Shown piece after piece: positions 7,004 through 59,553 of a stretch of 64,000 nucleotides of DNA. Each line of letters opens with the position of its first letter. Positions within the stretch are counted from its first letter, which is position 1. The notes under the pieces are model-generated. The model was not told where the DNA came from and ran no database searches. It saw only the letters and a list, made by a program, of their open reading frames with translations. Source of the stretch: Eledone cirrhosa (taxonomy: Eukaryota); assembly GCA_964016885.1 (NCBI GenBank), contig OZ024746.1, forward strand, positions 18,352,001 through 18,416,000, given 5' to 3'. A program made the position numbers and the translations under genes.

Positions 7004-7410
7004 CCTTGTATTCTCAGAATGATAAAAGCCAATACTAGCAAGATTTCATATGAATAAAACCATTGAATATTCAGTCCCTTTTATTATTTTCCTGGTTAAG
7101 GTTGCCAACACAGTGTGAATGAAATATACCAACAGTTCTTCTCGGATAACTTCATTTTATTTAACGCACTTCGAGGAAGTAATGTCGTACGAATAGTTCG
7201 GTGCCATTGAGTGTTGCTTTCTTGTATATTGTTTGTTTTTTTCTTTCACAGCCGTCAAAAGTCTAGGAAGACTTGTAACAAGGAATAAGCTGGGAGATAA
7301 TATATAAATATAAAAAAAAACAACTCAGTTTTCAGGCAAAGAACCTGTCGTTTATCTCCCCCAAAAGAGATGGACTGAGATTCATTACCACCATAGTGTC
7401 AGCTCCTCCT

Positions 7411-20021: not shown

Positions 20022-20085
20022 ATGGAATTTTTGCAAAATTTAGCAAATTCATTAAAAAATGCCCGTACTGTTGAATTACCTTACG
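20022..20085 (+). CDS. HACE1: HACE1 coding exon 1
   Basis: MEFLQNLANSLKNARTVELPY(D), like human [22 protein letters not shown]; donor G|GTAAGT. Confidence 0.9.
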
Positions 20086-21539
20086 GTAAGTTAATTTAGT
20101 AATCTTTTTGTATTTTTCTTTTCGGAATATTGCGATTGAATTTACTATAAGTATTTGTTTATTTTCTTTCATCTTCATATCCTGTTGTCGGTCGAAGGAT
20201 TGGCCATTGCTGTTTTATGTTTTGTTTATATTTTAGTGTGGAATGAGTTTTAAGTTCTTTTCATGGAATAATTTGAGTGGCGAGCTAGGTGTCCTGGGCC
20301 TTTGTAAAAGTCTGAAAAACCATTTTCTGTTATTATCCGATTACATCACACAGCAAATAAGCTAAAAGTCGTAAACATAACTTCCACCACACATAGTAAA
20401 ACCGATATAAATAATCAGAAGTGACCACTCCCATATTTACTCCGTCATCCATTCTACCCATGAACTAACATCAGTTTACCTCCACTAAAGAAGACACGTG
20501 CGTTATATCGTATTTCACTAAACATAAACATAAACAGAAATGTTAAAAAAGATAAACAAATTTACCTTTATGTTGTTGTTTTAATGAAAACAGAGCAAAA
20601 ATAAGTCGCTACTAGTGTAAATAAATATGCTTTATATACAGAGCGGATGAACTCCTCGGAGTCATCACCCCTCCCAACTATGGGGTAAATAATTTCACCA
20701 ACCCGCAATTGGCCAGGCGTGGTGAGTACAGCTACACTCCTTACATGACCAAAACCAAACAGAACGCGGAGATCAATCAAGGAGGGGTTCCTCCAACAGG
20801 AGTGACAGGGCCCTGGATTGGATTGGCTATAGTGTGCATCTTTAGGCCATCCATACTCAAGTAGACCTTCGATTAAAGGCTTTCTGGACATGGCCATTGT
20901 ATCTGTTCCAGTGTATATAACACTATACTATCTAATGTGTACTGTCCTTATAAAAGATGCGATTGAAGAGAGATTTGGCTACTAATTCTACCAGTTCGAG
21001 CGACCGCATAGAAGCTCCCTTTGAGGTGCTATTTTCATAAGCGCCAGATACGAGCAGACGAAGGAGCCCCTACATGATCACTCAACATAGAAGTATCTTC
21101 CTCAAAGGGCGCTCTACTGCCTTAAACAAACAAAGGAGACATTGCTTAATGTAATCATATATATACACCGCTTAAAAAGACGGGATGGTCACGAGTGGAA
21201 TACCTTTGTAGAGTTGAGCTGGTCTAAATAATAACAACGTTGCGGTATTTAATTATCTTCATTGTAATCTTTATTGGATCGATAAAATAAAATACCAATT
21301 AAATGCTGGGTGGAGATGGGGGTGGTATTTCAATCGATCGTCCCACTACCATCAACAAAAAATTTGTGATCTGCCTATATTAGAAACGATTGATTAGTTG
21401 AAATAATTAGACTCTGATTTGGCGAAATAACATTATGCCTTAACGTATATTTCTCCTTAATTTTTTTTTAAGAGGAAAAATAAAGTAAATTGCCGACACT
21501 GTCAACTCTCTCTTTGATCAATCTTATTAATTCTCAAGC

Positions 21540-22110
21540 GGTGCCTTTCACTTTCTATAGTTCTGGGTTGATGTTTTGCCCATGGCCTACTCAGTCTGGA
21601 TGAACTCTGCATCTCTATTATACTCAAAATATATAGGATGTCTGTAGGAAATTTAAATGTTGTGGCAAGTCCCTTGACTCCATCGGTCTTTGTAGATTGT
21701 CTTGTCATTTAAAGACAGTTCGCTTCACTCACCATACTGAACTGAATTTAATTATCAAGTGAGTCTTAGTTAAATTCAGCATCATTTCTATTCTGGAGCC
21801 AGCCAGATTTTCTAGCTCTGATGGGATGAAGACCTGCCCTTTGTCACTGTGTAAGAGGTAGATGTCTCATTTGGAACACCATAGTCAGCAACTCTTTTGC
21901 TCCTTACCACATGTTAGATGCTGCAGCAAAGGTGAGAAGGTCCTTGCATCCATAGCCAAATGGAATAAAATTTTAAAATACTAGGAATTATTGGCAGACA
22001 AGTTTTTGCAGCCTTTCATATTCAAGACGTTTGATGAAACAACATGGCTTTGACAGCTTGGTTATTCTCGCTATCACATCTGGCAGTGCTGTGAGTCTGT
22101 TGGCTTGCCT
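21540..22110 (+). mobile_element. Degenerate CRE-type (RLE endonuclease) non-LTR retrotransposon C-terminal fragment
   Basis: Remnants of H..LN.IIK..L, LEP....DG.RP, GRCLIW.T, K..KY.EL, F.PF.F.T motifs across frameshifts. Confidence 0.55.
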
Positions 22111-22589
22111 CAAAATTTATTAGAATGTAACTTCAGCCCCATTTTGTTTTGTTTTTATTTTTATTACATATAAATAAAAAAAGCATCCAGTCGACACTAA
22201 CGTGGTTGGTGTTAGGAAGGGAATCCAGTCGTAGACACAAAACCAAAATACAGATCTGTATGAGCAAGACATGGTCTCTGGATCTGATTTGTCTCATAAT
22301 GTGACAACCTGTCAAACCCTTGCAAGCATGGAAAAATAGATGTTAAACGATAATGATTATTATATATAAATCATGTTATTTGGGGTTGTACTTGTTTGGC
22401 AGATCTGAGATCATGTGCTAAAACTGCAACAATTACATCATGGAAGAGTTATATTAGTCATTTAACAACACACAAAACCATGTATAGCCACAGCATAAGT
22501 TTGTATAAGTCATTGCAAGTATGAGGGAGGGAAGCAGGAGCATATTGAGAGGGGACTGAAATGTGGATATATCTCTCTCAGCCTCTATA

Positions 22590-22870
22590 CTGCCATCCTC
22601 CCTACACTCATTTCATCTTGCACACAGGGGGAGAAGTTATCTGGTAGTACAGCAAATTGCCAGTCAATTTGATCTCGTGCCATCTTCACCATATTCAACT
22701 CTATGAAGTTAGCCTTCATCAGGACATCCCACGTTTTTTTTAGGTCTTCCCTTTCCACAGGTACCATCAACTTCAAGTGTCCTTCCCTTCTTTATGCAGC
22801 TGTCATCTTCCATACACATCACATCTCCATACCAATGTAATCTTATCACTTGTTCCCTATACATGGTCTT
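22590..22870 (-). mobile_element. RTE LINE 3' fragment
   Basis: RLHWYGDVMCMEDDSCIKK..VDGT.G.GRP. Confidence 0.8.
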
Positions 22871-23169
22871 TGGAGACCTCACCAGATTAGTGCAATTGAT
22901 ATTGTTGATATTCAACTTAAACATTTATAGGTCAATGTTGCAGTAAAAATGGTGGATGAGGAGGGATAGTTCTAGTCCTGCGGAAGAAATGATTAGAACA
23001 AATGTTTAGTGCAAGATCTGGGTTATGGAAGGAGTAATCGTAGGTAGACCCAGACTTTCACCTGCTGAGGCCCTAAGCTATATGGAATTTGAGGGCTTTC
23101 TCTAAAAAAAGAGTGGGTAAAAAATTTTAAATAATCATACATGATTACTATTTTTTATATTAATGTTAA

Positions 23170-24670
23170 TCATCATCATCATCATCATCATACGTCCGCT
23201 TTTCCCTGCTTGCAAGGATTGTATGGGTCCTATTCAGCACAGCATCTCTCCACTTGTCACAGTCCTTCGTCATCTCCTCGGTTAGTTTCAGCGATCTGAG
23301 GTCTGCTCTCACCACCTCTGCCCATGTTTTACCTCTACTACGTCTTCCTTCTACTGGGATTTTTTGGCACTTCTTTACCCAGAGGTCATCCTCCACATGT
23401 CCATACCATCTCAGCCTTCTCTCCTGCACACCACAACTTATCCCTCTTATACCCAGTTTCTTTCTCAACACATCAATGCTTGGTCGTTCACGCACATTGA
23501 CATAGCACATCTAACGGACAATACTTGCTTCATTTCTCTCCAGCCGTCGCTATCCTCTGTAGTTGCTGCCCATGTCTCACTACCATGCAGCATCACGCAT
23601 CTCACACAGGCATCATATAACTGTCCTTTCGTACGCAGGGAGAAACCCTTCTTTGTCAACAAAGGAAGCAGCTCCCTAAACTTCTTCCAACCCGTCCTTA
23701 TTCTAGATACTATGGCCTTGGAACACCCCCCTCCCATGCTAATCTGATCACCTAGGTACCGGAAGCTATCAACCACTTCTATAGAACCCACCTGCATTGG
23801 AAAAATGTGTCTATCACTGCGATTACTCCTGCCAACTTTCCCTGTACATCTACTGCATACGTAGTTTTCCCTACCTGTTAGTTTGCCTGCTATCCCACTA
23901 CATCTCTTGTGTAGCCAAGATTTGCATTGTGTACATTTTATGGAATTTATGCCAGTTTCTTTACTACATATCGAACATGGCCATTTCCCTGATGGAATCG
24001 GAGTATAGTCCTCTCTTCTAACTTATCAACACTTTTGTCTTAGCTATGTTCACTCTCAGTCCTCATGATTCCAACTGCTGTTTCCATAGCCAGAATTTAT
24101 TCTCTAGCTCCTCTACTGATTCTGTTATAAGAACCAGATCATCAGCATAGAGAAGTTCCCATGGGCATCCAGTCTTAAACTCCTCTGTTATGGCTTGGAG
24201 GAATATAATGAACAAGAGTGGGCTGAGGACCGAACCCTGATGAACACAGACTTGTATCTGGAATTCCCCACTAAACGCCATACCTACTCTCACTTTACTG
24301 ACAGCACCCCTGTACATAGCTTGCACTGCCCCCACAAGCCAATTCCTCTACACCTAGTTTCCTTAGGGACCACCAGATGACAGATCGGGGTACCCTATCA
24401 AATGCCTTCTCTAGATCAACAGAAGCTAAGTATAGCGGCTTATTCTTCTCTAAGAACTTTTCTTGTAGTTGCTTCACTAAGAAGAGTGCATCTGTTGTAC
24501 TTTTCCGAGGCACAAAACCAAACTGCATCTCATCTAATTTGACTCTTTCTCTAATCAGTTGCGCTAATATTCTCTCTGCCACTTTCATAACCTTATCCAT
24601 CAGCTTTATGCCCCTATAATTGCTCCTCTCTAGAGCATCCCCTTTACCTTTGTAGCAATTTATGAGAATA
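23170..24670 (-). mobile_element. 5'-truncated RTE LINE (RT to 3' end), nested in a hAT-like MITE
   Basis: QFGFVPRKSTTDA, VDLEKAFDRVP, HQGSVLSPLLF, LLYADDL; (CAT)n tail. Confidence 0.92.
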
Positions 24671-24779
24671 AAGAATAAAGACTAATGATAAAATAAAAAT
24701 CTATTTTTATAAAAATGAGGCCTCCAAGGGTGTGTGGCCCTAAGCTATAACTTACTTAGCTTATAGGTATGTCCAGGTC

Positions 24780-25140
24780 ATAGCTAGTTCAAAGAGAGAA
24801 GAGCTTTGTAATGGTAGTAGAAGTGACAAAGAGAAGAAACTGTTTGTATACAAGCTAGTGAATGTTGCACGAATCAGCTAAATAGCCTGCTTTGGAATTT
24901 AGTTTATATTTTAGTGTGCAGCAATAGTTTTCACCATTCCTTATGTATGAGTAGTACTGCAATGTGGGTCCTATTTGAGCTTTGTAGGAAGTCACCAACT
25001 GACCAGGGCTAACGTGTTTCTTGGTCTCAAAGAGGAATCTAGTCTTTGTGATGTATCTTATAGTGATGTTATCTACATATATAGTGACATCATGACAGAA
25101 GTCATCAGAGTTTGTGAGATCTATGACTTGTATCAACTTT
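24780..25140 (-). mobile_element. Jockey/CR1-group LINE fragment
   Basis: QLVTSYKAQIGPTLQY.S.I motif. Confidence 0.6.
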
Positions 25141-25961
25141 GAAGGTTTTAGTTGTATTGTTCATGACTAGAGAGAATGAGATAGAAACCCATTATTTTCA
25201 TATGTGTAATGATAGTCTCTTTGAAGAACATAAAGATACAATGTTATTTCATTCTTATTGAAGAATGTTCTCATAATCAAAAGGATTTTTCTTTTAACTT
25301 TTGAGGTTGATAAAATAAAGTATCAGTCAAGTATTAGGTCAGTTATATCAACTTTCCCCTCGCCACAGATTGGCAGTGTCGGTAGAAGGTCGGACGCCAT
25401 GCTTTGACGCATAGAGTTATGGTCCTTGCCATTCTGTGTTCAAATTCCGCCGAGGTTAACTTTGCCTTTCATCCCTACGGGGTCGATAAAATAAAGTACC
25501 AGTAATGCACTGAGTAATTCCTGGCCTTGTGCCTAAAGTAGAAACAATTATATAATATTATTCTCTCACTCTCTTGTTTATACCAGTGAACAGTTGCTTC
25601 TTATAGTAGCTATTTACAACTAGATAGGAGGTTAATTGAGCTGGTGAGAGGATGTAGACTATTGCACTTTCACCAAATATGACAACCGTCTGTAAACTTG
25701 TTGAAGTGTGACTCTATTAGCTAGAATACTCAGTAGTCAAAGAAATATATCTGCTTCAACATTTCATATGAATTCACTTTGAATTTAGTGTGTGCTGTTT
25801 AAAAAAGATATTTTATATAAAGCATCAGTAGCTATATGAAGTTAAACTCTGGACTACTGACCACATGGTCAGATGTTCAAACATTACTTTAGTCATTGTA
25901 TCCTTGAACAAAGAAAGCTCATTATTCCACTTTTTTTCAATTTGTCTAACTAACAGAATAT

Positions 25962-26464
25962 CCCATATATACTCGAATATAACCCCTCCCCCTCTCATTT
26001 TATGTCTGAGAAATAGACAAAAATCCAAACCCCATTTATAAGCTGAGGAGACAGGTAATCAACATATTAAGTTTAGATTGGTGCTATTTTGAATTTCTCG
26101 TGAGTGGAGAATATACGTATTTATGAAGTTTTAATATTTTGATATTTATAATGTTTTGAGTATTGTTTAGAGTATAGGTTTTGTTTCACAACTCCATTAT
26201 ATAATGATTTTTTACCAATTTCCAATCGTTTATATGCTCATTCAAAGCATATAAAAAACAATATAAAATATGAATTTCATGTCGAAAGTGAAACTTGTGT
26301 AATATTCACCTCCAAAGTGAAAATATTTTAGCACCTCATTTATGTAGAATTTTGGAATTGGTGAAAATCGGCAAAATATTGGCCTCAAATATATATCAAA
26401 CCCCATTTTATTGACTTTTTTTTTTGTCACATATTTCGAAACTTATATACGAGTATATATGGTA
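25962..26464. mobile_element. Tc1/pogo-type MITE; related copies at about 39040-39275 and 62270-62360
   Basis: TIR-like CCATATATACTCGAATATAA / TTATATACGAGTATATATGG. Confidence 0.7.
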
Positions 26465-26796
26465 GATTTCACTCCTATTTCACTGTTCACTGGTTAGCTG
26501 TAAAAAAAAGGTGGGGTGTCTAAAACAGACTCGTAAACTCTTTGTTTATTTTACTAGTTGCCAGTCTCCCAACTGGTCTGGCCACAACACGCGACAACTG
26601 ACTAATCTAAGCAAGCATGGAAAAATAGATATTAAATGGTGATGATGATGATGGTTGTCTTTATTGAAATTGAGGATTTCCACTTAATTTTCAAAAATCA
26701 ATATTATTAATCCTTCTCAAAAAAAAACCCCCCAAAAACATTAATTACTTTGTGAAAAGATAATTAATCTCACTCTCTCTCTCTCGCTCATATATA

Positions 26797-27452
26797 TATG
26801 AGGTGTGTCAGAAAAGTTCCAGGACTGATGTCACAAAAGATTTATTTCAAACCCAAACTTCACACTAAGAGTTTTCTCCTTCAAAGTAATCCCCCTGGAC
26901 TTTTCCATCCTTTTCTGCCACGCTTGCATGCACTCCTGGAAGGATTTTTCCGGGATCCTCCGCAGTTCCGTCGTCACGGCCTTTTTGATGTTGTCCTCCG
27001 GGTCGTACTCAAAGAATCATGACTCATCACCGGTGATGACTGTCCCTAGCAAGTCTGGTTCGGTTTCAAGACGCTCGAGGATGTCCTGGCACACTTGCAT
27101 GCGTCGACCCTTCTGGTCATTGTTCAGCAGTTTTGGCACCATCTTCGCGCAGACTTTCCGCATGTCCAAATCTTCAGTGAGAATCTTCCAGACGCTGTCT
27201 GATTCATACCCAGCTCATTTGCCATCAGTCGAACAGTCAGCCGACGATCGCTACGTACCATCTGCCTGACGCGCTCAACGTTGACCTCAGTCCTGGTTGT
27301 TGAGGGCCTTCCCCTCCTGGGGTCATCTTCCACGTCCTTGCGTCCTACTTTAAACCTCTTGTACCACTCAAAAACACGTGAGCGTGACATCGTCTCATCT
27401 CCATACACTTGCTGCAGCAATCCCAGTGCTTCTGATGGAGTTTTCCCCAACG
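26797..27452 (-). mobile_element. Internally deleted mariner transposon (HTH and partial DDD domain)
   Basis: GKTPSEALGLLQQVYGDETMSRSRVFEWYKRFK.GR.DVEDDPR.GRPST, VTGDES; TIR TATGAGGTGTGTCAGAAAAGT at left end. Confidence 0.9.
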
Positions 27453-27471
27453 TGTGTATATATATATATAT

Positions 27472-28208
27472 ATATATTTAGAAACACACAGATACATGCG
27501 GACACACACATATATACATGAATGCATCCGCACCCAACTAGTCGAGGAATTTAGGAACAGTTTAGGTATGATACATTTTATTACTAATTATATCTAAATG
27601 TTTCTTCTCTCTTCATAATGTATTTTTAACTCTGATACTGGTTCAGTCTAGTTCAAACTGAATTGGTCTGTCCCGGTCATTCATTGAGCAACATCGGTGA
27701 AGTTGGCACCCTTAACTCACAGTTGGGTGCGGATGCATTCATGTATATATGTGTGTGTCCGCATGTATCTGTGTGTTTCTAAATATATTAATAACTCCCT
27801 CTGGTCGAGCAATCTTTGAAGTGTGGGGACAACTGGAAAGCTTCCATTACTCATACTTCTCGCCTTCTTCACTACCTCTTCTGCGGCCTCGATATGAATA
27901 CCCCCTCCGCCTCCGTGGTATTTTCTTCGTGGTTATAAGAGGCTTAGCTCTGTTTCTCGACCGTTATATCGCGTGACTATCTCCCCCTCCGCCTTTTGGG
28001 ATTCTTTCTCACGTCGTGTAGACGCGTTCTTGAGACTAGTAAAATGAGGTATCCTCTTGATAAGTCGGCAGACCTCGCAAGGACTCTATATCTTTGATAT
28101 ATTGTTTTTGTTTATGCCACGAAACTACGTAGTCGAGGAATTTAGGAACAGTTTAGGTATGATACATTTTATTACTAATTATATCTAAATGTTTCTTCTC
28201 TCTTCATA

Positions 28209-28213
<5 letters not shown>
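27472..28213 (+). mobile_element. Family B non-coding hammerhead element: 591-bp unit with terminal direct repeat and 5' inversion
   Basis: 27540-27623 repeats at 28131-28213; 27472-27539 is the reverse complement of 27721-27788; flanked by (TA)n. Confidence 0.7.
28052..28139 (+). ncRNA. Type I hammerhead ribozyme, U3-A8 core variant (family B)
   Basis: TCCTC/GAGGA stem I, TTGATAA core, GT(C)GGCA/TGCCAC stem II, GAAA, palindromic ACTACGTAGT stem III, GUC cut after 28134. Confidence 0.8.
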
Positions 28214-28243
<30 letters not shown>

Positions 28244-28268
28244 TACGTGCATATATATATATACATAT

Positions 28269-28457
28269 ATATGAAAAGATTCAGGACCCCAACGGCTGAG
28301 CTCTGGCTGTTTTGACAGCTAGATCTGAACTCTTTGAAACGGCTGGAGCTCAGCCGTCGGAGTCCTGAAACTTTTCATATTACCCACTCTACTACCCCAA
28401 GTATCAAGTACTCTGGTGGATTATAGTCCACCTGGTATTTTACCACATCCTTTCTGA
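28269..28457 (+). mobile_element. Family D fold-back element with hammerhead 3' half
   Basis: Inverted arms 28269-28380; GAAACGGCTG..CAGCCGTC; tail homologous to 47950-48027; ends in (TA)n. Confidence 0.55.
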
Positions 28458-28765
28458 TATATATATATATATATATTTCCATATCCATTTTTTTATTTCT
28501 ATTTAAGAAAGAACACTGTTTGCTAAAGAGAAAATGAAATCAAAAGAAATGTCTGAAAAATTGCAAAATCTAAATACCACATATGGTAGATATGCTATTT
28601 CAAAGTTTGACATTTATTAGGAGTTATTGTGGGGCAGTGTGAGGGGTAGAAGCAGATTAATAATGGGCATCTTAATGGAGGATTTTAACATGTTTATGTT
28701 TTATATGACAATTGTACATTATAAACACAACAATCTCACAATGTCTCATATTTTTCTTTTCACAG

Positions 28766-28820
28766 ATGATAGATCGGCATTTTATATGCTTATGACTATG
28801 GTGGTGGCTAACCAACACAA
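28766..28820 (+). CDS. HACE1: HACE1 coding exon 2
   Basis: (D)DRSAFYMLMTMVVANQH(K); cag acceptor, GTAAGT donor, phases match. Confidence 0.9.
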
Positions 28821-29096
28821 GTAAGTATCATCATCATCATCACCGTTTAACGTCCATTTTTCCATGCAAGCATGGGTCAGACAGGTCGTCCACATTGAGA
28901 GACAAGTCTGGCCAGGATTAGCCATGCCATACCTTGTACCTTTCTCTGATGAGTCTGTAAATTTTGGACGGGGTTTTTACAGCTGGATGCCCTTCTTAAC
29001 ACCAACCCCATTTACAGTGTGGAACTGGATGGCAATGCTATGAGGTGAGACAGGCCAGTTAGCTGCTCCACACCCTTCTCACAGCGGAACCACTGT

Positions 29097-34383: not shown

Positions 34384-35185
34384 TTTCACCTCCAAAATGA
34401 AACCGGTGTAATGTTCACCTCCAAAGTAAAACAGGTGTAATATTCAGCTCCAAAGTGAAACCAGTGTAATATTCAGCTCCAAAGTGAAACCGGTGTAATA
34501 TTCACCTCCAAAGTGAAACCAGTGTAATATTCACCTCCAAAGTAAAACAGGTGTAATATTCACCTCCAAAGTAAAACAGGTGTAATATTCAGCTCCAAAG
34601 TGAAACCAGTGTAATATTCACCTCCAAAGTAAAACCGGTGTAATATTCACCTCCAAAGTGAAACCAGTGTAATATTCACCTCCAAAGTAAAACAGGTGTA
34701 ATATTCACTCCCAAAGTAAAACAGGTGTAATATTCACCTCCAAAGTAAAACCGGTGTAATATTCACCTCCAAAGTGAAACCAGTGTAATATTCACCTCCA
34801 AAGTAAAACAGGTGTAATATTCACTCCCAAAGTAAAACAGGTGTAATATTCACCTCCAAAGTAAAACCGGTGTAATATTCACCTCCAAAGTGAAACCAGT
34901 GTAATATTCACCTCCAAAGTGAAACCAGTGTAATATTCACCTCCAAAGTAAAACAGGTGTAATATTCACTCCCAAAGTAAAACAGGTGTAATATTCACCT
35001 CCAAAGTAAAACAGGTGTAATATTCACTCCCAAAGTAAAACAGGTGTAATATTCACTCCCAAAGTAAAACAGGTGTAATATTCACCTCCAAAGTGAAACC
35101 GGTGTAATATTCACCTCCAAAGTGAAACCGGTGTAATATTCACCTCCAAAGTGGAACCAGTGTAATATTCACTACCAAAGCGAAA
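34384..35185. repeat. 29-bp minisatellite, about 28 copies
   Basis: Unit AATATTCACCTCCAAAGT(G/A)AAAC(C/A)(G/A)GTGT. Confidence 0.97.
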
Positions 35186-46088: not shown

Positions 46089-46810
46089 GTAAGCAATATA
46101 GATTTTTTCTTGCTACTTTTATGTGTTTAATATTGTCCATCTCATTTCCATATTTCTACTTTCTTCATCCTTGTTCTGCTTTTTTTCCTTCCTTCTTTCC
46201 AAGGTTGGATAAAGCATATGAATTATATGCTGCAGTTTTGATTATATCCCTCCTGTATGATTTAAACCTATGGTTTTTATCTTTTAAGGCACTTTTTAAG
46301 TTTGAATTATTATGATATTAAGGTCAACTTTGCCTTTCATCCTTTCAAGATCGATAAAAATGCTGTCCTTGACAGGTAAAAATTAGTGACCATATAATTA
46401 AGATGATTAAGATGCAGCAAACTGGCAGAGTCGTTAGAACATCGGATAGAATGCTTTGTGGTATTCGTTCTGGCTCTCTGAGTTCAAATCCTGCCATGGT
46501 CAACTTACCCTTTCATCCATTCAAGATCGATAAACAAAAAAAAAGTACTGGGGTCTATCCTGCCTCTATATGGTGATGGTTCTTTATTGTAGTTGGAATG
46601 AGAGGAAAGGACAAGCTAGAAAATAAGACATCTATAATTTGAATGTTATAGAAACATATCCAACATTTTTACTTATAGTCTTCAATATATTGTTTGAGTA
46701 TTGTTGATTTGTTAAAAATGTTTTTTTTTTATTGTTTTATTGTTATTATAATTCTTTACATTTAATTTTTATTTTTATTTACATTGTCATAATCAACATC
46801 ATCGTCACAG

Positions 46811-47265
46811 CCATTAGAGGTCTTATGGAAATTGCTTGGAGACTGGCTTAACCTTTTGGAAGACGAGTTCAATAATATTGGCTCAAAACAGGGTGATAAA
46901 GAATCATGCATAGACAGTGAAATAGTGAAAACAAAAACTACAAATGTGAGTGCCACACTTGAGGTGGCTAAAGACCAGGAGATCAAAGAAGTGTCAGAAG
47001 AATGGACACATGAGGACTCTTCTGCCAACAATACTGAAGAAGCAGAAGAAGAATCAACAAACGACTCAAAACATAGTCCACCATTAGTTACAGAATTAGA
47101 TACAGAAAGTAAAGATCTCTTGACAAATAATGAACCTAATATGGCAGCACTTGCTATTCAGGGTCTGCCTGTTAGAAATGAAGATATTATCACTGCTACA
47201 GTGCCTCGAATATGTGCTGTTATACAGGCTTTCTATCAGTGCTGCACGTGTTTAACACCGAAACC
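46811..47265 (+). CDS. HACE1: HACE1 coding exon 13 (with long acidic linker)
   Basis: PLEVLWKLLGDWL...DIITATVPRICAVIQAFYQCCTCLTPK(P); matches PLELLW..LDEWL and AVIQAFY.CC.C. Confidence 0.93.
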
Positions 47266-47486
47266 GTAAGTTGGGTTTTATTGTTTTATCTCTCCTTCAT
47301 TAAAGATTACATTATATAATTTATCTCTATACAATTATCATTTGATTTTATTAGAATTAAAATAGTTTAATTTTTTCTATGAAAATAAATTAAAATAATA
47401 ATTTAGTTATGGGTGAGTGAAAAATCTGTTATTACAACCATTGTTATCTATGATATACAACCATCATATTGTAATTATTTCCATAG

Positions 47487-57578: not shown

Positions 57579-58385
57579 GTAAGACTTAAAATAATAATAA
57601 TGTTTTGTAACATCAACACAAAATTACACATTTGCAAGGAAGGGTGTAGTTGTTTTAATCAGTCCTAGTATTTATTTTATTGACTTCAAAGAATGAAAGG
57701 CAAAATATCAAAATATCCTGATCATGGTCATATACTTCTTATTTACAAAAGGAATTACTCTTGAACCTTTGGCCCTAAAGGGCAACTTCGTATTTTAAAA
57801 TCTATGGGGTTGGGTGGAGGGGTAATTTTCCATTGTTCTCTCATCACATTGCAAAATATGGTACCAATGGAGGAAGTGGGAAGAAAGTTGTCATCAAGTC
57901 TCTCTCTTTCAATAACAGCAATTTTTCTGCATTGACGGCCAGTGCCTGCCACCACCACAACCACTGCAATTATTAGTTTCTTCAAGTACCACTTGAAGAG
58001 GAAAGTGAGGGTGAAGAGTGTTCCATAAAAGGTGGGTGAGAGCAGTAAAATTGATGTGGCTGAATAAGCCTACTCTCATTATGCTTTTCTAAGATAGGAA
58101 TAAACTGGGAGAGGGCACTTTCAATGTCTTTGGTGATACAAAGGAAGTCAGGACTTTAATGATGGTGGTGGTGGTGGGGTTCCCCTTGAATTACCCTTGG
58201 TAGTTTTCCTTTTATTGTTTTGTTTTGTTTTTTGTTAGAAATGTATTATATTGTTTTTGTTGATTTCAAACCCTTTTACTCAGTGTAAACCTCACTTTGT
58301 ATTGTTTCCAACATGTTGGATCCTTGTGGCCATTAAAAGAAATAACCATTATTATTATTACTATTACTGCTTCTACTATGTCCAG

Positions 58386-58520: not shown

Positions 58521-58543
58521 GTAAGTGATGCTTATTAAGAATT

Positions 58544-59553
58544 ACAATGTTAGCAGCATATACAGGGTACAATGTTAGCAACATATACAGGGTACAATGT
58601 TAGCAACATATACAGGGTACAGTATTAGCAACATATACAGGGTACAGTGTTAGCAACATATACAGGGTACAGTATTAGCAACATATACAGGGTACAATGT
58701 TAGCAACATATACAGGGTACAGTATTAGCAACATATACAGGGTACAATGTTAGCAACATATACAGGGTACAGTATTAGCAACATATACAGGGTACAATGT
58801 TAGCAACATATACAGGGTACAGTATTAGCAACATATACAGGGTACAATGTTAGCAACATATACAGGGTACAGTATTAGCAACATATACAGAGTACAATGT
58901 TAGCAACATATACAGGGTACAGTATTAGCAACATATACAGGGTACAATTTTAGCAACATATACAGGGTACAATGTTAGCAACACATACAGGGTACAATGT
59001 TAGCAACATATACAGGGTACAGTATTAGCAACATATACAGGGTACAATGTTAGCAACATATACAGGGTACAGTATTAGCAACATATACAGGGTACAATGT
59101 TAGCAACACATACAGGGTACAATTTTAGCAACATATACAGGGTACAATGTTAGCAACACATACAGGGTACAATGTTAGCAACACATACAGGGTACAGTAT
59201 TAGCAACATATACAGGGTACAATTTTAGCAACATATACAGGGTACAGTATTAGCAACATATACAGGGTACAGTATTAGCAACATATACAGGGTACAATGT
59301 TAGCAGCACATACAGGGTACAATGTTAGCAGCACATACAGGGTACAGTATTAGCAACACATACAGGGTACAATGTTAGCAACATATACAGGGTACAATGT
59401 TAGCAACATATACAGGGTACAGTATTAGCAACACATACAGGGTACAGTATTAGCAACATATACAGGGTACAATGTTAGCAACACATACAGGGTACAGTAT
59501 TAGCAACATATACAGGGTACAATTTTAGCAACATATACAGGGTACAATGTTAG
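58544..59553. repeat. 25-bp minisatellite, about 40 copies
   Basis: Unit TACAGGGTACA(ATG/GTA/ATT)TTAGCAACA(T/C)A. Confidence 0.97.

Follow-up and report, generated by a model that had tools for sequence, protein, structure and literature searches.

A young retrozyme family in Eledone cirrhosa with two-armed insertions that suggest a probable circular RNA template and a probable Penelope-like enzyme

The window, i.e. the whole stretch of 64,000 nucleotides of the Eledone cirrhosa genome that was analyzed, contains a HACE1-like gene on the plus strand. The insertion described here lies in an intron of this gene, likely intron 1 (20086-28765, plus strand). The intron is defined by splice sites and phase: its GT/AG sites join exon 1 (20022-20085) to exon 2 (28766-28820) in a matching phase. 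We take these two exons to be the N-terminus of HACE1; a search of the PDB with exon 1 alone gave no match. Downstream, an exon at 46793-47269 (plus strand) matches human HACE1 in the PDB with an E value of 1.6e-4, and a HECT piece is found at 58239 on the same strand. An earlier note on this DNA had placed the element in sense orientation in intron 1 of HACE1. The downstream match and the splice sites agree with this location, while the N-terminal identity is presumed and the orientation looks incidental.

The same note had the element inserted into a mariner remnant. A 5'-broken remnant with a Mos1 HTH domain (PF17906, E value 9e-8) does adjoin the insertion, outside the element, at 26797-27450 on the minus strand, but no right-hand mariner half was found in the 64-kb window. 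Because the remnant is present only on the left, the element abuts the mariner and does not split it. Several other repeats occur in the window. A MITE-like hairpin with 44-nt arms (28269-28380) lies to the right of the insertion, and a similar sequence flanks another locus of the family (L041). An inverted pair of a short (ATC)n-associated repeat is located on either side of the region (26598-26653 and 28829-28884). The introns of the HACE1-like gene include minisatellites at 34385-35180 (period 29, 27 copies) and 58543-59553 (period 25, 40 copies). The window also contains a second type I hammerhead family, with a canonical C3-G8 core, a palindromic stem III and the stem I TATTTTAT/ATGAAATA; its copies are at 117, 452 (minus strand), 572, 1578 and 32041, one of them inverted, and the family also occurs at L109.

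The copy in the window is 742 bp long and represents a single insertion of a 591-nt non-coding retrozyme unit. The unit runs from predicted cut to predicted cut (27544-28134, plus strand), as delimited by tandem arrays and fold, and would correspond to the RNA monomer or circle; its positions are numbered m1-m591. Two arms lie back to back and overlap by 1 nt at 27539. Arm A (27539-28213, plus strand) consists of unit positions 587-591, one full unit and positions 1-79/80, and its 3' end is what we call fixed end A. Arm B (27472-27539, minus strand) covers unit positions 178-245 and is the exact reverse complement of 27721-27788 (68 nt, 100%); its 3' end, fixed end B, points to the left. The left (TA)n target tract (27457-27477) overlaps the last bases of arm B and is the flank that occurs at nearly all ends of the family; the right tract is at 28212-28240. 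Hence the 68-bp inversion and the (TA)n on both sides, both noticed before, are present, and so is the direct repeat of 84-85 nt (27539-27622 and 28130-28213) with 100% identity and a spacing of exactly 591. The reading of this copy as slightly more than one monomer with an incidental inversion has to be replaced, however: the copy is a short B arm plus an A arm of 1.1 units, and the 68-bp piece is the second arm, ending at B, while the long arm ends at A.

No stop-to-stop frame of at least 90 aa occurs within the 591-nt unit, and neither LTR, PBS nor PPT was seen in it, the PBS being judged without a tRNA scan. The terminal redundancy of the copies is a partial tandem unit and not an LTR. GC content is below 50% (247 of 591). 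A plant LTR retrozyme, with type III hammerheads in LTRs and a 4-bp target duplication, was ruled out by the type I topology, the multimers and the ends in TA tracts. The whole unit is strongly structured (fold z -6.2), and this is also true for the region 27544-27790 (plus strand; z -7.0), which contains both fixed ends and which, from its fold and hairpins, is the putative region of RT binding and start. Directly upstream of each fixed end are a long hairpin and a stretch of pyrimidines that passes into TA. The hairpins of the end region are kept across subfamilies, with both-sided changes in 3 of 68 pairs.

The hammerhead motif at 28052-28139 (plus strand) has the variant core, the palindromic stem III and the GUC triplet that the earlier note described. 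Stem I is formed by TCCTC (28052-28056) and GAGGA (28135-28139). The core extends from U3 (28057) to A8 (28062) and A9 (28063). Stem II comprises G28064-C28120 (G10.1-C11.1), T28065-A28119, a bulged C28066 and GGCA/TGCC, closed by a long loop II hairpin. It is followed by GAAA (28121-28124), by the stem III palindrome ACTACGTAGT (28124-28133) and by the GUC triplet, with the predicted cut after C28134. The sequence therefore contains all elements of a type I hammerhead, i.e. N3-UGA-N-N8-A, GAAA, NUH, three helices and a Watson-Crick 3-8 pair. Rfam reported no hammerhead at this site, neither at the gathering threshold nor at E values up to 10; its miRNA matches were noise from the TA repeats.

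The motif is highly conserved in the genome. U3 was found in 201 of 201 units and A8 in 201 of 202, so that the other copies keep the motif. In the genome, the 24-nt sequence of its 3' half is matched exactly at 7,300 places and the reversed control at 0; the motif does not occur by chance. The 5' half gave 7,127 matches with U3 and 9 with C3. The latter do not represent a C3-G8 sister family, since eight are single changes to C3-A8 and the ninth is unrelated. Between old and young subfamily, 0, 0 and 1 of 19 positions of the 5' half differ; only this half was compared, as the 3' half had been selected for by the search. In 20 copies from two subfamilies 97% of the cells in the hammerhead helices are paired and no compensatory change occurs in the stems. 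The family is too conserved for covariation in the hammerhead to be informative in either direction.

An isolated 98-mer of the hammerhead forms stems I and II, yet its fold is no better than that of shuffled sequences (z -1.4). In context, stem I is predicted to compete with an upstream GAGG/CCUC hairpin, which is conserved in both subfamilies, and with a downstream UCUUC; the predicted probability of stem I is at most 0.09 once the upstream context is included. The active hammerhead fold is 8 kcal/mol above the MFE of the circle and is not the predicted ground state. The predicted fold would suit a stable circle with dimer- or protein-assisted cleavage; it would also allow little cleavage.

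A DNA search with the unit, in which 40 of 964 candidates were scored, returned dozens of units with 99-100% identity, many of them in exact head-to-tail runs, and these copies are located on more than 15 contigs. The tandem arrays that the earlier note suggested looking for were thus found across the genome, with exact 591-nt head-to-tail junctions and multimers; they reach about 12 units, the longest arm having 11.8. A marker of the youngest subfamily has 393 genome matches. An older subfamily has units of 585-588 nt that differ by about 26% outside the hammerhead core, and its copies end at the same two sites, at about +75 and +241. The view that the window holds a mobile, cDNA-type copy of a non-coding, hammerhead-bearing unit is supported by these data. 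The element is very probably a member of the metazoan non-LTR retrozymes, young and with thousands of copies.

Near-identical words of the unit also occur in 20 sequencing runs under 17 organism labels (X1-X20); none of the runs is listed as RNA, which carries no information about expression. Four runs were assembled: X2 and X7 each gave one closed contig (621 and 620 nt, depth about 8) and X14 and X16 gave pieces. All four carry variants that are also present in the subfamilies of the genome. Contamination by an abundant molecule, a related species and horizontal spread would each account for these matches. The closed contigs are not counted as evidence for a circle, because the kind of run is unrecorded and tandem DNA also closes into loops.

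The architecture of the insertions was mapped at 117 loci, which are part of some thousands of insertions and none of which was picked at random: 39 had the best BLAST scores, a selection that favors young, full units, 40 are exact motif matches taken in order along C1, and 38 come from the list of the youngest subfamily, about half of them picked as multi-unit. The set excludes pieces of less than 90% identity, the second copy at L063, and L204 with L205, a single duplicated locus that contains an N gap. At L204-L205 and L063 the retrozyme insertions are duplicated along with their flanks, which may be a segmental duplication or an assembly artefact.

The 118 entries from these loci (L182 was split in two) comprise 70 two-armed and 45 single-armed insertions, 2 complex ones and 1 without a match; the complex entries are L067 and an array on C14, which is A/B on inspection. 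The 3' ends of the arms fall at about m80 (A) or m245 (B) after the predicted cut and run into (TA)n. Single arms finish at end A in 20 cases, at end B in 23 and elsewhere in 2. The pairing in the two-armed insertions is strict. A/B was found in 65 of the 70, one end is unclassed in 4, and a single insertion is A/A (p 2e-18 when tested against a free choice of ends). Two of the four unclassed cases reach A after a deletion. The A/A case, L215, holds 5 of the 7 discordances between arms described below and looks like two insertions. The inner joins have an overlap of 1-6 nt in 42 of 70 insertions and are blunt in 9.

The 5' ends show the opposite behavior, in that 183 of them are spread round the whole unit, which rules out a fixed start at the cut site. 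For the same reason the start of the window copy 4-5 nt before the cut, which was noted earlier and is present, is not special; it is a chance 5' truncation and not a fixed feature. In an interval of 7 nt round the predicted cut we counted 6 of the 183 ends where 2.2 are expected, a weak excess in an interval that was picked post hoc. Among the 65 A/B insertions the B arm extends beyond start A in 52, and both arms are longer than one unit in 14; it follows that both RTs read the same stretch of template. The insertions have the structure of PLE-type (Penelope-like element) insertions, i.e. a tail at one end, an inverted 5'-truncated copy and a TA target. They also recall L1 twin priming, in which two primers on one RNA produce a 5' inversion with microhomology at the join. 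The inversion and the microhomology are shared, but the position of the second site varies in L1, with no overlap of the arms on the template. In the retrozyme the positions of both sites are fixed, and each of the two arms can be longer than one unit.

The sequences of the arms indicate that one insertion is copied from one template. At common polymorphic sites the two arms agree in 779 of 786 comparisons (626.5 are expected for random RNAs), and units within one arm agree in 1,625 of 1,635. Full units differ by 0.7 nt between arms, by 1.8 nt within arms and by 8.2 nt between insertions. Thirty-four insertion-private variants are present in every covering unit, and 22 of them, in 15 insertions, span both arms. 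At sites covered by at least three units, 18 private variants occupied all units, 70 a single unit and 12 some but not all units. For variants present in only part of the units, the counterpart unit of the other arm lacked the variant in 55 of the 59 comparisons, which counts against a multi-unit linear template. The 4 shared comparisons come from two variants of the C14 array, at the same unit offset in both arms.

The two classes of private variants lean in opposite directions. Variants in all units are A>G in 12 cases and T>C in 4 (p 0.004); the lean comes from the first set (9:2) and is not replicated in the replication set alone (3 versus 2, p 0.38). In contrast, the 131 singletons include 28 T>C and 2 A>G (p 1e-4), and here the replication set shows the same lean (10:0, p 0.009). 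We infer that the A>G changes are marks, possibly A-to-I edits, which the sense RNA already carried when it was copied and which every round reproduced, and that the T>C singletons arose independently in the individual RT rounds as dG-opposite-U errors. Targeting of helices by ADAR is unsupported by folding: the A>G sites show no enrichment in predicted helices (0.46 versus 0.60). Their 5' neighbor is T in 7 of 12 cases and G in 1 of 12, a weak fit to ADAR. The clearest case of a hyper-edited template is L090 (G000:C1:50593000-50602999), an 8-unit insertion with an A>G cluster in every unit of both arms. At L041 (G000:C3:51373600-51383200), at L043 and in the C14 array (L020-L023), blocks of variants have a period of 2 or extend over a pair of neighboring units; dimer circles, template switching or a later duplication might account for them.

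The genome also offers candidates for the enzyme. Matches to GIY-YIG led to several PLE families. One of them, a young and abundant family (L101, at G000:C1:145869000-145878900, with further copies L220-L239), encodes RT and GIY-YIG and has a CX4CXXC motif ahead of the endonuclease, as in Neptune/Nematis PLEs (PMC8557442). Its units are about 4.7-5.0 kb long and many copies are 99-100% identical with open frames of 775 aa. The RT-EN frame has no start of its own and lies downstream of another frame, which may imply a frameshift or splicing. Its hammerhead is U3-A8 in 37 of 37 matched cores and has a palindromic stem III. The fixed ends, at +82 and +150 after the predicted cut, are in (TA)n, and all two-armed copies are A/B (13/13 in 20 loci and 5/5 in 8 earlier loci). 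The end motifs TTTCTTTATA and TTTCTAATATA resemble the retrozyme ends, which are TTTCTTTATA in the old subfamily and TTTCTAAATATA at end B of the young one.

The likeness between retrozyme and PLE is confined to these short end motifs. In 30 GIY-YIG loci and 20 L101-family loci, a subset of the PLE families, only chance-level matches or matches in CA/TA repeats were obtained, so that the BLASTN search for an autonomous partner, suggested earlier, provided no homologous parent PLE. No RT/GIY-YIG ORF was found in the unit, and none that belongs to the element turned up in 40 loci examined together with their 3-kb flanks. A search for a parent PLE by the stem III pattern with another stem II gave 94 matches (control 24); the 20 inspected were 18 copies of the family and 2 unrelated sequences. 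Retrozyme insertions at L053, L066 and L084 share a TA tract with the end of an L101-family copy. L066 was considered as a retrozyme-PLE chimera and reads instead as a retrozyme that inserted where a pre-existing PLE copy ends; no clear chimeric insertion was seen among the loci examined. Two more PLE families have U3-A8 cores, one represented by L118, L091, L092, L094, L096 and L098 and the other by L119. The L118 family ends at about +203 and +250 in (TA)n; it was rejected as a parent, its 18-nt matches near end A lying elsewhere in its UTR. The L104 and L111 families keep C3-G8. U3-A8 thus seems to be common among the PLEs of this genome. We put the chances that the L101 family is the partner of the retrozyme at about even: no long homology to any of the sampled PLEs was found, and U3-A8 cores and two ends also exist in other PLE families of this genome.

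The explanation that we favor, and consider probable, is that of a young non-LTR retrozyme, the circular RNA of which is copied by a Penelope-like RT/GIY-YIG protein acting in trans, with two fixed start sites that give two-armed insertions in (TA)n. Multimeric transcripts would be made and would cleave themselves at the U3-A8 hammerhead, probably as a dimer via the palindromic stem III; the 591-nt monomers would then be ligated into circles. The protein, likely of the Neptune/Nematis type, would be supplied in trans and would cut both strands of a TA tract. Two RTs, one per DNA strand, would start at the fixed internal sites A and B, roll round one circle with strand displacement and stop at random, after which the two cDNAs would be joined as back-to-back arms. 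Template marks at the RNA level together with errors made anew at each RT pass would account for the all-unit A>G lean and the T>C lean of the singletons. That the template for copying was circular is, taken by itself, also likely. A more specific version, in which one protomer of a PLE dimer always starts at A and the other at B and both roll one circle, stamping the editing marks, may or may not hold, with equal odds. Published work bears on this reading in both directions. Circles of metazoan retrozymes were shown in coral, mussel and axolotl (PMC7229834), and retrozymes of 51-972 bp have been read as non-autonomous derivatives of PLEs (bioRxiv 10.64898/2026.07.22.740005). A purified PLE cuts and extends both strands, has two internal start sites on its RNA and a tail, and is predicted to be a dimer (PMC11167929). 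On the other hand, of nine retrozymes predicted in Xenopus one was cleaved in vitro and eight were not (bioRxiv 10.64898/2026.07.22.740005), which counts against our explanation.

The same PLE machinery could instead copy a linear multimeric transcript from homogeneous source arrays, with little or no hammerhead cleavage and no circle. Most arms do read through the predicted cut, the active hammerhead fold is disfavored in prediction, and two variants of the C14 array are found at equal unit offsets in its two arms. Furthermore, the purified PLE does not need hammerhead cleavage and uncleaved RNA is its main substrate (PMC11167929). However, each private haplotype would require its own unsampled source array, as long as the insertion or longer (up to 14 units for L041). 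Parental variants at the unit level should reach both arms in register, which is not seen in the 55 of 59 comparisons given above, and inherited parental singletons should produce a T>C lean, the opposite of the all-unit A>G lean. In addition, the core is conserved between subfamilies that are about 26% apart. We regard a linear template as rather unlikely for the family in general. Nevertheless, the 12 variants in some units, the period-2 blocks of L041 and the same-register pair of C14 indicate that dimer or linear templates, template switching or duplication at the DNA level also occur.

It is very unlikely that monomer insertions were multiplied and homogenized later at the DNA level by unequal exchange, slippage or conversion between arms. 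Inverted arms can convert each other, and L043 and L041 contain variant blocks of period 1 and period 2; such a model was proposed for vertebrate retrozyme satellites (bioRxiv 10.64898/2026.07.22.740005). But multimers are common in insertions that are less than 0.5% diverged, unit-private changes are strand-biased relative to the sense of the element although the arms lie in both orientations, and the combination of random 5' ends with fixed 3' ends matches that of RT products. A mover other than a PLE, i.e. a TA-targeting LINE or an unsampled element, might be suspected from the lack of pLTR homology in the sampled PLE loci, but is extremely improbable given that two fixed ends, a one-sided tail and 5'-joined inverted arms are PLE signatures (PMC8557442) which the L101 family of this genome shows too, and that neither a poly(A) tail nor a target duplication was seen.

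Compared with the metazoan non-LTR retrozymes (PMC7229834; bioRxiv 10.64898/2026.07.22.740005), the family is alike in its non-coding tandem units with a type I hammerhead, a GC content below 50%, the absence of LTR, PBS and PPT, thousands of copies, co-occurring PLEs and a length within 51-972 bp. It differs in the U3-A8 core, the targeting of (TA)n, the two fixed 3' ends, the strict A/B arms and the lack of a pLTR parent among the loci searched. In the circle of this family the hammerhead would, by prediction, be locked off; in most circles of metazoan retrozymes it is predicted to be free (PMC7229834). With Neptune/Nematis PLEs and Naiad (PMC8557442; PMC11167929) the family shares 5' truncation, an inverted 5'-joined copy, a tail at one end, a bias to microsatellites and a hammerhead upstream of two internal RT start sites; it differs from them in the absence of an ORF, a tail of 165 nt versus 30-40, exact arrays of many units and the evidence for a single template. 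Natural U3-A8 hammerheads have been described, with activity in vitro attributed to ref. 32 of PMC3088659, and they occur in the Cercyon PLEs of Schistosoma (PMC4209133). The core covariation is the same here, and the palindromic stem III is likewise suited to cleavage as a dimer; unlike in those cases, U3-A8 is fixed in one genome both throughout a retrozyme family and in three or more of the PLE families. According to a 2020 review, retrozyme repeats show no motif that points to a partner (PMC7761336), and the word "ribozyme" does not occur in an octopus repeat annotation paper (PMC13282606). A literature search, with most subscription journals and supplements (and possible cephalopod examples in them) outside its scope, found no report of the family, the strict A/B rule, the single-template evidence or editing marks in all units.

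Retrozymes, U3-A8 cores and the tails and inversions of Penelope elements are already known. The value of this family is not its U3-A8 core but the mechanism that is recorded in its copies. It concerns the questions of how animal retrozymes move and by which element, the route via a circular template being a hypothesis (PMC7229834), and of why PLEs have tails and inverted copies, which is described as open in PMC8557442. The family is young and numerous enough for the reaction to be read off the genome, and it defines two putative start sites at single-base resolution, together with a rule for their pairing, a candidate for the enzyme and a signature of the template. If the reading of a dimer on a circle is true, it would support the proposed route of retrozymes via circles directly from genomic data and would provide one rule for both the one-end tails and the inverted copies of PLEs. 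It would also mean a natural RT system that turns any circle with two start hairpins into a TA-targeted multimer.
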